Virus record (IMG/VR): IMGVR_UViG_3300037067_026422
Reading direction: 5' to 3' (one strand)
Length of the DNA: 64,000 bases
DNA from: a virus
Taxonomy: Duplodnaviria > Caudoviricetes
Part shown: one piece after another, positions 4,725 to 30,444 of the stretch
How the letters are laid out: each line of letters begins with the position of its first letter
Position numbering within the stretch: the stretch's first letter is position 1
Notes under the pieces: generated by a model
Seen by the model: the letters and a program-made list of their open reading frames with translations, nothing else
What the model was told of the DNA's origin: nothing
Database searches by the model: none
Program-made: the position numbers and the translations under genes

Positions 4725-5467
4725 TGAAAGCTCTTATACACGGGAACACCACAAGAAAAGGTAACATAGATCGAGTAAGCATATCTGATCCAGACTGTGC
4801 TATAGCTTACTGTGGGCTTGAAGAATTAGGGGCTGATACAGATATCATGGCTACCTGGATAGGCTTGTCCAAAGAGGAATTAGAATCATATGGTGTCTGT
4901 ATAGGTGGAGTCAACCAATGTAGACATGCTCTGTTTAAAATGGGCATCAAAAATTATGATATCCCCTGCTATCCGCTGAATCTCCAACATTTCATGGAAA
5001 GAAAAATAGAGATAACTACTATAGCAGAAGTCACTAATAAAATACTGAAACGAGAGTATACGGAGCCTAAATTTGTGAAGTCTATAGGACCGAAAGTTTT
5101 TACTCCCTTCAATACCAGTGAGATCGATTTAGATTTCTTATACTCTGTTGGAGAACAGGAACCGGTCTATGTGTCCGATATTGTAAGATTTATGACTGAG
5201 TGGCGGGTATATGTTAAAAATGGAGAGATAATAAAGCTGTGTCATTACTCTGGTAACCCTCGGGTGTTCCCTAATATTCTTATGATCAAAGTGATGATCT
5301 CAAATTTTCAAGGTCCTTGTTTTTATGCCCTCGATGTGGGTATCATAGGAACTACTACAGTACTGGTAGAAATAAATGACGGATATTCTCTTGGTAACTA
5401 TGGCTTATATCCGAGTGAGTATGCAGAGCTGCTTACTATGCGATGGAAAGAACTTACCGGAAAATGA
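4724..5467 (+). CDS. ATP-grasp protein, R2K clade (DUF4343-like)
   Basis: FVKS, EWRVYV, ALDVG and LVEINDGYSLGNYG motifs. Confidence 0.8.
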   Translation: MKALIHGNTTRKGNIDRVSISDPDCAIAYCGLEELGADTDIMATWIGLSKEELESYGVCIGGVNQCRHALFKMGIKNYDIPCYPLNLQHFMERKIEITTIAEVTNKILKREYTEPKFVKSIGPKVFTPFNTSEIDLDFLYSVGEQEPVYVSDIVRFMTEWRVYVKNGEIIKLCHYSGNPRVFPNILMIKVMISNFQGPCFYALDVGIIGTTTVLVEINDGYSLGNYGLYPSEYAELLTMRWKELTGK

Positions 5468-5802
5468 TCAGATACAGCCCGGAACTAATACAGGAATTGT
5501 TTTTGTTCATTGTAGAGCATAAAATCTATGATGGCTCTATAGTAGAGATGTTTTTAACCAGAAAAACTTTTAACGGTTGTAGAATCAATATCTCTGACAT
5601 AGAAGCACAAGTAGTATTCAATAGAATGTTAAATTATTCTCATACCTGGATATCTCAGAAATTCCCCACCAAACTTCAAAAGAAAAATATGCAGGATATC
5701 AGGAAAGTGATCTTTGAGCTATCTCTTAATGATATGCCCAAGCACATCAATGATCCCCTAACCGGACCAATAGCATCCTGGCGATTGAACAAAGGGATAT
5801 AA
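5464..5802 (+). CDS. PLYIN-WRL family paralogue 1
   Basis: MIRYSPELIQEL ... MPKHINDPLTGPIASWRLNKGI*; ATGA overlap with the ATP-grasp stop. Confidence 0.8.
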   Translation: MIRYSPELIQELFLFIVEHKIYDGSIVEMFLTRKTFNGCRINISDIEAQVVFNRMLNYSHTWISQKFPTKLQKKNMQDIRKVIFELSLNDMPKHINDPLTGPIASWRLNKGI

Positions 5803-5804
5803 GC

Positions 5805-6149
5805 ATGATAAAATATACAGAGAAGCAGTGGGAATGCTTATACAAAGAAGTGCTATTTGAACAGGTCAATCTTATATCCCTTGAAGCTTTTATGATAAAG
5901 AAAAATTGGTATGAAAAAAGACATATAAAAAATCTTAATACTGATCAGTATGCCGTGTACAATAAGTTACTGAATATCCAACCTAAAAAAATAGATAGAA
6001 AGAACAGATACTACTCTCAGGAGGAATATGACAATCTCTGTAAAATCAGGGAGATAATATTTAAAGTAGAATGGAAGAAACTTCCTCTCTATATAAATGA
6101 TCCTATACTCAATCCAATAATAGCATGGCGATTAAGAAGCAATATCTAA
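5805..6149 (+). CDS. PLYIN-WRL family paralogue 2
   Basis: MIKYTEKQWECL ... LPLYINDPILNPIIAWRLRSNI*. Confidence 0.8.
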   Translation: MIKYTEKQWECLYKEVLFEQVNLISLEAFMIKKNWYEKRHIKNLNTDQYAVYNKLLNIQPKKIDRKNRYYSQEEYDNLCKIREIIFKVEWKKLPLYINDPILNPIIAWRLRSNI

Positions 6150-6829
6150 TGATAGAACAATTTATGAAAATTAAGGATAAAGAAACACTGTACTGTCCAA
6201 GATGTACATCCCCACTTATACTTGGTCAGGGATATCGCAGATATCAGACTCTTGTGGAACATGTCTGTGGAGATGATAGAATTTCTGAAAAAGAATATTA
6301 TATATGTTCTTCTGAAAGGTGCCCAACAAGAATATCGGATTCCTTTTGGGATTGGTATGGTAGTTCCTATATAAGTAACTCCTGTGATCCTAAAATATTT
6401 ATTATGGAATGCTCCTCGGCCCTGAATTCAGGTCAAAGACAATTTGATATCTCCAATAAGCATATAGATATACAACTTCTACATCTTATATGGTTTCGAC
6501 TGATTCTCGAAAAATACCGTGTCCCTGATCAAATGGGTGTTAATATACTTGGATACAAGTATAAATTTAAAGGACTGGTTAAATCCGGTGCTGAGTGGTG
6601 CTATTATACTCCTGGAATAAAAATGTTCTTTTTCTGCCTAAATAAATTTAATAATGCTCGGAAAAAACTGCAGGAAAACCCTGAAAGCACGTGGAGTGAA
6701 CAGCAGATGCTTCAGGAACTCAAATGCCCAAAAGAAGACAAACGATGGTGGAAGATGCTATCCGCATGGTGGCTCAATCTTCTACACCCGGGACTCAAAG
6801 AGAAGCTACAATGCAAAAAGAAGATCTGA
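6149..6829 (+). CDS. Hypothetical Zn-finger protein
   Basis: CPRC and CSSERC motifs; TAATG coupling to the upstream gene. Confidence 0.65.
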   Translation: MIEQFMKIKDKETLYCPRCTSPLILGQGYRRYQTLVEHVCGDDRISEKEYYICSSERCPTRISDSFWDWYGSSYISNSCDPKIFIMECSSALNSGQRQFDISNKHIDIQLLHLIWFRLILEKYRVPDQMGVNILGYKYKFKGLVKSGAEWCYYTPGIKMFFFCLNKFNNARKKLQENPESTWSEQQMLQELKCPKEDKRWWKMLSAWWLNLLHPGLKEKLQCKKKI

Positions 6830-28403: not shown

Positions 28404-28427
28404 TATTACATAGAAGGAGGCTTTATA

Positions 28428-29846
28428 ATGGCTAAATTTCAGGTAGAGAAAAGGTATGATAATTCAAATGAAGGTTTTACTGAAACCCTAAAATATTATG
28501 TTATGCATCAAGCTAATGTCTTGACAAATCATAATAAATTTTATCTTGAAGAGTTGCAAAAGCACCCGGATGGAAGATACCGTATCTTCACACATTATGG
28601 GCGGCTCAGCATCTCCAACATCTATGAAGTTCGGGCAGAAGCTGGTGGTAAACCTTGCTATGACCTGGCTGAGATAGAGAAGGAATTTGAAGCCATCCAT
28701 AAAAAGAAGCTTTCCGGCAAATCAGTCACAAACCCCGATACAGGGGAGAAAGAAAAAGAATGCTATGTCGATGTGGATGTCGTCAGCCCCCAGGTTGGGA
28801 GTGAGAACATCCGCGGTAAAGCCGAAGTAAAGAAAACTGTAACCACCAAGCTGGCGGTGGACACTACTGCTTATGACCCTTTAGTTGGGAAGTTACTTGA
28901 TCAGTTAATTGAAGAAAATGTTCACTCCATAACCAGTATGACCAGTATCAAATTTACTGCCAATGGCTTTGCTACGGAATTGGGGCCTGTTACTATTCAA
29001 CATGTAGATAAAGCAAAAAAAGTCCTCGACGATCTCAATGATCAGATGGATAAGAACGGTAATATGGATCCTGATAACAAGAACGTCCAGAAACTTAACT
29101 CTCTATTCTTTTCTCTCATTCCAAAGCCATTCTCCAGAAAAATATCCACAGATGACATGATTCTGGGGGCACAGAAGCTGCAGGACGAATACAATATTTT
29201 GGACCAGTTGGCTACTGGGGTAAGTATGGGTGCAGCTATGAGCCAAAATACCGCAGCAAAAATGAATGCTCTTGGTACTGATATCGAAATCCTGAAAGAC
29301 AAAAAGGAATATGACCGTATTGTGCGATATGTTGAAAGCAGTAAAGCTGACAATCATCGTGGATCGAATGTCTGGGGATATAGGGTAAAACAGATATTCA
29401 AAATCAGGATACCCGAAGAGCGCTCAAGACATGAGGCAGTCCTCAAAAAGTATGGTAATGTCGAAGAAGTGTTCCATGGCAGCGCAAACTCAAATTTACT
29501 TAGTATAATTAAAGGTGGTTTAATTATACCAAAAAGCAACGCCCCTCATGTCTGTGGTCGTGCCTTCCATGATGGTGTTTATGGTGCAATAAATAGTACA
29601 AAAAGTTTAAATTATAGTGTTGGTTATTGGGGCGGTCGAAGAAGTACCTATGCTAATAACTTTTTGTTCCTGGCGGATTTTGCCATGGGAAACACTTACA
29701 TTACAGACTCTGGTAAACCTAATGGCCCCCCTTCAGGATATGATAGCATATGGGCTAAAAAAGGGTACTCGTTATATAATGATGAGCTTATTGTTTACTC
29801 TTTACCCCAGTGTACACTTAAGTATCTTGTAGAAATGATAAAATGA
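28428..29846 (+). CDS. Poly(ADP-ribose) polymerase-like: WGR + regulatory + catalytic domains
   Basis: WGR-like HNKFY..YGRL; regulatory LNSLFFSLIP; catalytic H-Y-E triad FHGS, GVY, KSLNY, NDELIVY; AGGAGG SD. Confidence 0.92.
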   Translation: MAKFQVEKRYDNSNEGFTETLKYYVMHQANVLTNHNKFYLEELQKHPDGRYRIFTHYGRLSISNIYEVRAEAGGKPCYDLAEIEKEFEAIHKKKLSGKSVTNPDTGEKEKECYVDVDVVSPQVGSENIRGKAEVKKTVTTKLAVDTTAYDPLVGKLLDQLIEENVHSITSMTSIKFTANGFATELGPVTIQHVDKAKKVLDDLNDQMDKNGNMDPDNKNVQKLNSLFFSLIPKPFSRKISTDDMILGAQKLQDEYNILDQLATGVSMGAAMSQNTAAKMNALGTDIEILKDKKEYDRIVRYVESSKADNHRGSNVWGYRVKQIFKIRIPEERSRHEAVLKKYGNVEEVFHGSANSNLLSIIKGGLIIPKSNAPHVCGRAFHDGVYGAINSTKSLNYSVGYWGGRRSTYANNFLFLADFAMGNTYITDSGKPNGPPSGYDSIWAKKGYSLYNDELIVYSLPQCTLKYLVEMIK

Positions 29847-29893
29847 ATAATATATATCTTCAGTGTAAAGTAAGAAAAAAGGAGAAATAGGCC

Positions 29894-30121
29894 ATGCTTG
29901 ATAGAATAACAATGACTTTTACAAAAAACTATGTCACGGTCAATAAAAAGTATCATTGTAAGAAATGCGGCTTCAGATTCTATCGAAAGAATCGGGACTG
30001 GTTCACTATAAACCCCCTGAGCACCAGTGACTACAATACTGCCCGGGAAGAAAAAAGAAAAGCAATGGAAGTAAAAGTGAGGGAATGTCCAAAATGCAGA
30101 GAAATAGTAATTCCTTCTTAA
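29894..30121 (+). CDS. Small Zn-ribbon protein
   Basis: CKKC and CPKC motifs; AAGGAG SD. Confidence 0.7.
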   Translation: MLDRITMTFTKNYVTVNKKYHCKKCGFRFYRKNRDWFTINPLSTSDYNTAREEKRKAMEVKVRECPKCREIVIPS

Positions 30122-30444
30122 AGAGGTATACAACAAAGGATCTGAGACTTCTGAATGACCTAATCGACCCTATTACCCATAACCTTAATAAGTATTCTGT
30201 TTCTTATTACCCAAACAAAGATAGTAAAGGCACTTTGTTGAACCCTGAACTTATAGCTGAGATGTCTGATCAGGAAGTAGTAAATGCTTTGAATCGAATA
30301 ATACACTTTCTGGCACCAGCTTTTAAAGAAGATATCCTTATAAACATTATGTATATAGAGCCTATGCAAAAAATGCCCCTGTACATAAACAGAGAACTCG
30401 GTATGAGTATTATTGCAAAGTGGAGGCTAATAATAGGAAAATGA
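30085..30444 (+). CDS. PLYIN-WRL family paralogue 14
   Basis: YTTKDLRLL ... MPLYINRELGMSIIAKWRLIIGK*. Confidence 0.8.
   Translation: MSKMQRNSNSFLKRYTTKDLRLLNDLIDPITHNLNKYSVSYYPNKDSKGTLLNPELIAEMSDQEVVNALNRIIHFLAPAFKEDILINIMYIEPMQKMPLYINRELGMSIIAKWRLIIGK

Follow-up and report, generated by a model that had tools for sequence, protein, structure and literature searches.

Why should a phage carry a set of small genes whose products agree closely at both ends and differ in between? The question is raised by a stretch of 64,000 nucleotides from a virus of the Caudoviricetes (Duplodnaviria; IMG/VR record IMGVR_UViG_3300037067_026422), referred to below as the window, in which a reading made from the letters alone (the sequence-only reading) had picked out 14 open reading frames (ORFs) that end in W-R-L, four further residues and a stop codon. 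These ORFs, numbered here from 1 to 14 in the order of the table below, belong to a protein family that is certainly real and is new to the libraries searched. Its function can be given more tentatively, as a possible repertoire of proteins that bind host factors.

A six-frame scan of the whole window for W-R-L-x4-stop returned 14 matches, all on the plus strand and all where the sequence-only reading had placed them. Only eight W-R-L tripeptides occur elsewhere in the window, so that chance alone would produce about 0.3 such endings. In each of the 14 ORFs, a second motif, [PS]-x-[YHF]-[IL]-[NS], precedes the Trp by 7-11 residues, and near the N-terminus 13 of the 14 carry Y-x7-L, accompanied in 11 of those 13 by Glu or Asp at +4; these are the counts originally reported. 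The codons of the motif vary synonymously among the members (CGA, AGA, CGC and AGG for Arg; TTA, TTG and CTA for Leu), bearing out the earlier conclusion that the sequences form a real protein family selected at the protein level. Thirteen of the 14 reading frames are intact; the sole broken one, member 13, has a single in-frame TAA and could be a pseudogene, contain a read-through site or reflect a sequencing error. Local profile hidden Markov models (HMMs) built from 127 relatives recover exactly the 14 members, with E values from 1e-10 to 4e-25, and no further significant family member in the window.

Stop and start codons overlap as ATGA at six junctions of the nine-gene array (26107, 26415, 26717, 27389, 27727 and 28065) and where members 1 and 4 begin, and the stop of member 14 has the same AAATGA form. 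A Cys-rich ORF of 147 amino acids (aa) at 8031-8474 contains an internal DLPLYIN that resembles the family motif, with a score that is not significant (E 0.04).

Relatives and library searches

Relatives were collected by an exhaustive HMMER profile search of 1.84 billion representative proteins from metagenomes, with a cut-off of E<=1e-3. The search yielded 683 representative relatives, nearly all of 90-140 aa, and all of those with a known context sit on phage-like metagenome contigs. In the best 150 of the 683, the end of the profile is the end of the protein almost without exception. Of 157 relatives whose sequences were read, 153 have Trp at position -7 from the C-terminus; three of the other four show Tyr or Phe instead, or WRF at the same spacing, and the fourth (P0073) has Asn at -7, leaving only one of the 157 without a conserved aromatic residue seventh from the C-terminus. 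The family consensus opens with M-n-x-Y-T-x-E-E-x3-L and closes with P-L-x3-P-L-Y-I-N-D-p-x2-P-e-I-A-k-W-R-L-k-I-G-K. Furthermore, half of the proteins begin exactly three residues before the Tyr, so that protein and domain begin and end together. The residue at the very terminus is not fixed across the family, with K, R, I, L, E, T and V all occurring. The invariant distance between motif and C-terminus claimed for the window thus extends to relatives from other samples and to the one fusion protein described below; no homologue was found with the motif internal and at no fixed distance from the terminus.

The sequence-only reading had not recognised a named family, and the library searches agree with it. 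No family member matches Pfam or NCBIfam, including any Pfam repeat family of known function. There was no consistent match in PHROGs, where one isolated hit was seen, and a profile search of PDB sequences gave rows at chance level (troponin C at E 0.5, for example). Among 50,697 GenBank phage records, none was matched by blastn of 25000-31000 or by tblastn of two members. In IMG/VR, a search with one member found no relatives, and scans for the C-terminal motif in the form of two degenerate DNA patterns brought no hits; in GTDB genomes, no relative turned up with one narrow peptide pattern, which is weak evidence. Taken together with the structural models described in the next section, these results point to an undescribed single-domain family of uncultivated large phages, about 100-120 aa long and mostly helical.

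Predicted fold and the divergent middle

Two members were modelled with AlphaFold. The model of member 8, made from an alignment of 127 sequences, has a predicted local distance difference test score (pLDDT) of 85 and a predicted template modelling score (pTM) of 0.76, with helices at residues 6-15, 34-41, 49-55, 61-75, 79-85 and 90-99 and a hairpin of strands 22-25 and 30-33. That of member 2 (pLDDT 81, pTM 0.74) has helices at residues 6-18, 23-29, 48-56, 72-86, 90-96 and 103-111. Both are compact, mostly helical single domains in which helix 1 and the last three helices correspond and the segment between them differs. The earlier proposal of a constant helical clamp around a diverse middle is therefore borne out in its first part, the constancy of helix 1 and the last three helices in the two models; the middle, however, is not a free insert. 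In both models, the last helix, which carries WRL, has a pLDDT of 94-95 and is followed by about two free residues. A WRL helix that is modelled as part of the fold, with so short an end beyond it, does not indicate a free C-terminal tail that is recognised by another protein, as the sequence-only reading had supposed.

Structural comparison did not identify a convincing relative. Foldseek found no match at E<=0.001 in either PDB or BFVD; the ESM Atlas gave TM scores of at most 0.43 by shape and, by features, only unnamed clusters at 0.88-0.89; and the best Z scores of a wide fold search (VIA) with the two models were 4.4 and 4.7. Chains of sigma region 4, extracytoplasmic function (ECF) sigma factors, KorA and homeodomains recur weakly in both wide searches, at Z 2.4-3.6. 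The suggestion that the motif resembles a single HEAT or LRV hairpin found no backing: the corresponding Pfam models had no hit among the 127 members at E<=0.01 and none among 10 window members at E<=1, and no repeat protein stood above Z 3.4 among the fold matches listed. Neither T4 Rnl2 nor the solved Rnl C-terminal domains were among those matches. A family of hundreds of sequence clusters, with up to 14 or more copies per genome, that is matched nowhere in Pfam, NCBIfam, PHROGs, PDB or cultured phages and lacks any detectable structural relative marks a sizeable blind spot in phage annotation.

Divergence within this one fold is clearly non-uniform. Among the window paralogues, identity is 51% over the last 24 residues, 29% over the first 16 and 22% in between, and in one alignment (A1) the paralogues are 16-37% identical to the reference copy. 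The middle 60-80 residues had been described as beyond alignment by eye, which holds across subfamilies; within one of them, that of members 1 and 2, the sequences align over their full length with a mean column identity of 46% (alignment A5). The middle also retains a periodic pattern of conserved hydrophobic positions, and it is 67% identical between member 6 and its orthologue in a related phage contig (L003). In the models it consists of a beta-hairpin plus helices (member 8) or of helices plus a loop. Because the middle is conserved within a subfamily and between orthologues, the term "hypervariable core" overstates the case: this is the divergent part of one domain, fixed within each lineage, and not hypervariability of the immunological type. 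It is probably surface-forming.

Array turnover, gene neighbours and candidate functions

Related phage-like metagenome contigs (L001, L003, L004-L006, L008 and L014) were used for comparison. The PARP-like gene beside the nine-gene array is 79-80% identical among the window, L003 and L008, and in L014, too, family members flank a PARP gene. The arrays beside PARP share few recognisable orthologues across phages, with best identities mostly of 33-52% and two isolated pairs, one at 68% and one at 52%. At the DNA level, similarity among the 3' ends of the copies is 60-86%, and the last 22 nucleotides of members 12 and 13 are identical. The 5' extension of member 10 (about 27063-27089) resembles the degenerate C-terminal end of another copy (..ILSIWRCK..), which suggests a past deletion or recombination between copies. 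The alike 3' ends, the shared 22-nucleotide stretch and this apparent relic fit unequal recombination, and recombination of this kind between conserved ends is a plausible engine of array turnover. A scan of 24000-31500 for promoters and terminators showed no enrichment over shuffled sequence.

A second setting links the family to an R2K ATP-grasp gene and an RNA ligase. The order RNA ligase, Methyltransf_24, R2K ATP-grasp, family member, 234-aa protein, family member is common to the window and L004-L006; between them the RNA ligases are 66% and the R2K proteins 50% identical, and in both the R2K stop overlaps the start of the member. Linkage to R2K, represented in the window by an R2K_2/R2K_3 gene, is limited to one subfamily (5464-7155), and R2K is absent from the DNA seen around the PARP-side arrays and in L001. 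Window positions 3146-5467 hold an Rnl5-like RNA ligase (PHA02142 OB fold plus RNA_ligase), Methyltransf_24 and R2K ATP-grasp as a compact set; L004-L006 have the same order, but an RRM_1 gene replaces the OB-fold part. Enzymes of the R2K.2 and R2K.3 types have been predicted to work as peptide ligases on protein targets, as yet unknown, in conflicts between phage and host (PMC4431377; PMC7824862).

A further contact with RNA repair is found on L001, where a 458-aa protein (320-1696) combines an N-terminal part that reads as an HNH motif (E 6e-8), a PF09414 RNA ligase and the whole family domain, its N-terminal motif included, as residues 348-459. Another member lies directly downstream of the fusion gene, and a PNKP-like gene about 460 bases further. 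HNH-Rnl2 fusions are known in jumbo phages (PMC7824862). In a collection of 5.8 billion proteins, no second RNA-ligase fusion was found, the C-terminal region of the fusion finding only itself, and a search aimed at longer, fused family proteins returned none.

What might such proteins do? The reading that we favour, at somewhat less than even probability, is that they form a rapidly evolving repertoire that binds or inhibits host proteins, by analogy with polyimmunity loci, which are described as polycistronic, with distantly related paralogues set in tandem and a make-up that varies even from strain to strain (Zhang et al. 2012, PMC3482391). The rapid change of copies between related phages may point to a binder set aimed at host factors. 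Judged from the motifs, the helix at the N-terminus (Y-T-x-E-E-x3-L) and the final three (P-L-Y-I-N ... I-A-x-W-R-L-x-I-G-K) would pack against one another to form a structural clasp, while the middle would provide a surface specific to each copy. Because both ends would belong to the clasp, the fixed termini would reflect the fold and not a detachable tag. Duplicated copies of the genes form operon-like tandem arrays joined by the ATGA overlaps, placed in what appears to be an accessory region rich in genes for NAD, ADP-ribose and nucleotide signalling and for RNA repair. Each paralogue would then bind a different host protein, most likely an effector of host defence or a toxin, and neutralise or redirect it, so that the array would work like a phage-carried homogeneous polyimmunity locus in which an arms race drives the gain, loss and divergence of copies. 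The isoelectric points (pI) of the copies, from 4.9 to 9.7, are as expected for different binding surfaces, and the neighbours are of the kind associated with conflict (NADAR, PARP, an NMNAT-like fusion, HD_4, RNA ligase, R2K ATP-grasp and radical SAM); the L004 homologue of ORF 9242-10300 also bears an AcrVA2-like annotation.

The likeness to homogeneous polyimmunity loci of the SUKH and Imm kinds lies in the tandem arrangement of distant paralogues, nine of them in the array here, and in a content that differs sharply between close relatives. The carrier here is a phage rather than a bacterium, there is no known toxin partner, and SUKH or Imm proteins do not show N- and C-termini so strictly fixed; membership in these families found no Pfam or NCBIfam match and no detectable fold similarity. 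Several points weigh against a repertoire of host-directed binders. The analogy draws only on organisation and evolutionary tempo, which other accessory families share; none of the copies has a target, toxin or defence gene linked to it; similarity to a known immunity or anti-defence family was found neither by sequence nor by fold; and the conserved polar residues (the Glu at +4, the Asn of PLYIN and the invariant Arg of WRL) could form a binding site that all copies have in common.

The link to RNA ligase permits another explanation, which we regard as unlikely: that the domain is an accessory of RNA repair, binding RNA or tRNA or docking onto an RNA ligase, with the paralogues directing or protecting different RNA substrates. 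It would account for the L001 fusion, with its downstream member and nearby PNKP-like gene, and for the members that lie two genes downstream of the RNA ligase in the window and L004-L006, and it gains from the known HNH-Rnl2 fusions and from the last 12 residues, which are always basic (mean charge +2.5). Likewise, the domain on L001 follows the nucleotidyltransferase domain of its ligase, as do the C-terminal domains of phage RNA ligases (T4 Rnl1/Rnl2; PMC7824862). The fusion, however, is a singleton, many members are acidic as whole proteins (38% with a pI below 6), no RNA-binding fold was matched, no solved ligase chain is among the fold matches listed, and the family is otherwise free-standing and multi-copy, with most copies beside PARP and not beside a ligase. 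The R2K neighbour raises an alternative that is more doubtful again, a sharper form of the common-partner idea of the sequence-only reading: that the N- and C-terminal clasp and a free C-terminus are recognised by a single phage enzyme. The R2K ligase, whose gene lies just upstream of member 1, is the natural candidate and would extend or ligate the C-terminal carboxylate. The precisely fixed end, with Trp or a substitute at -7 in nearly every relative and the domain C-terminal even in the RNA-ligase fusion, would suit a substrate of this kind, as would the R2K-then-member order, kept with its ATGA overlap although the R2K proteins have diverged to 50% identity, and the prediction that R2K.2/R2K.3 enzymes are protein-modifying peptide ligases with unknown targets (PMC4431377). 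Only one subfamily adjoins R2K, however, most copies not being beside a ligase; the last helix is modelled with confidence to about two residues from the end, leaving no flexible tail; and the terminal residue varies. Among characterised systems, RimK acts on the C-terminal end of ribosomal protein S6 and TTL on tubulin, and the known C-terminal substrates of ATP-grasp enzymes have acidic tails; the C-terminus here differs in being basic or hydrophobic and largely helical. A bolder form of the idea, to which we would give a slim chance, makes the family the substrate set of phage R2K ligases, a C-terminal tagging system of ubiquitin-like or RimK-like character on a new fold, with the middles choosing the targets. 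If this were true, these would be the long-sought R2K substrates, their C-termini being extended or conjugated to host proteins.

There are two further proposals. That the proteins are small helix-turn-helix-like regulators, or mimics of sigma region 4 that serve in host takeover, would suit the basic C-terminal helix and the weak sigma, KorA and homeodomain resemblances, all of which have Z scores far below the range in which the tool is meaningful for helical proteins; with no Pfam match to helix-turn-helix or sigma families in 127 members, bar one MerR_1 hit below threshold, this seems very unlikely. The least probable of the explanations takes them for internal proteins that are packaged in the virion and ejected, with a shared targeting signal, by analogy with T4-type internal proteins, which are diverse small phage proteins encoded at a plastic locus and sharing a short constant terminal motif, the capsid-targeting sequence. 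Small size, diversity, a plastic locus and a constant terminal motif are common to both; here, however, both ends are conserved and are predicted to lie in the folded domain rather than in a cleavable leader, neither a prohead protease site nor a link to the virion was seen, and the genes occupy an accessory block on the strand opposite to the tail-fibre-like genes. Returning to the host-directed repertoire, the turnover beside genes for PARP, NADAR and NAD synthesis, the conserved ends and the R2K link together make the family a promising place to look for new host-factor binders or anti-defence proteins, and it may help to reveal what R2K ligases act on.

Coordinates and surrounding genes

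Table. Family members and two context genes in the window.
Feature	Position	Strand	Remarks
Member 1	5464..5802	+	112 aa, ends WRLNKGI; start overlaps R2K ATP-grasp stop (ATGA); full HMM E 2e-22
Member 2	5805..6149	+	114 aa, ends WRLRSNI; second AlphaFold model
Member 3	6811..7155	+	114 aa, ends WRLKKGI; without the N-terminal Tyr
Member 4	16685..16990	+	101 aa, ends WRLKINK; ATGA overlap with 240-aa ORF upstream
Member 5	25393..25737	+	opens the nine-gene array
Member 6	25763..26110	+	hydrophobic middle; L003 orthologue 68% identical
Member 7	26107..26418	+	array copy; found by WRL scan and HMM
Member 8	26415..26720	+	first AlphaFold model (pLDDT 85)
Member 9	26717..27049	+	L003 orthologue 49% identical
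Member 10	27039..27392	+	domain begins near 27102, preceded by 5' extension
Member 11	27389..27730	+	array copy; found by WRL scan and HMM
Member 12	27727..28068	+	array copy; found by WRL scan and HMM
Member 13	28065..28403	+	one frame, broken by in-frame TAA at 28281-28283
Member 14	30085..30444	+	downstream of PARP gene and a small zinc-ribbon ORF; position kept in L014
R2K-clade ATP-grasp gene (context)	4724..5467	+	overlapped by member 1; order kept in L004-L006
PARP-like gene (context)	28428..29846	+	family members flank it in four related phage contigs

The proteins of the window lie on a contig of 238,919 bp. The family genes belong to a long block of small genes on one strand, among them RNA ligase, Methyltransf_24, R2K ATP-grasp, radical SAM, rhomboid, an NMNAT-like fusion, NADAR, HD_4 and the PARP-like gene, and they are on the opposite strand from the tail-fibre-like genes. 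The region appears to be an accessory, host-interaction block of a jumbo phage. Member 4 is located some 600 bases upstream of the MazG/cytidylyltransferase-like (NMNAT-like) gene, which, with a nucleoside 2-deoxyribosyltransferase-like gene, NADAR and HD_4, makes up a cluster for NAD, ADP-ribose and nucleotide signalling at 17588-24520. Within the same interval, a minus-strand ORF at 19745-20881 reads, from its sequence, like a receiver domain joined to HD-GYP. A 352-aa protein encoded at 9242-10300 is 56% identical to an L004 protein with the precomputed annotation "AcrVA2-like" (PF26125), and the window copy itself had no hit in a Pfam scan.

Beyond the block, three consecutive minus-strand genes at 49583-57528 encode collagen-triple-helix repeat proteins of 1348, 769 and 499 aa that match phage tail-fibre families, and proteins with a malectin domain and RCC1 repeats are encoded in the adjoining segment, 46728-49578. 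At 57855-60047, also on the minus strand, a gene for an NAD-dependent epimerase/dehydratase is interrupted by an intein with a LAGLIDADG endonuclease domain.

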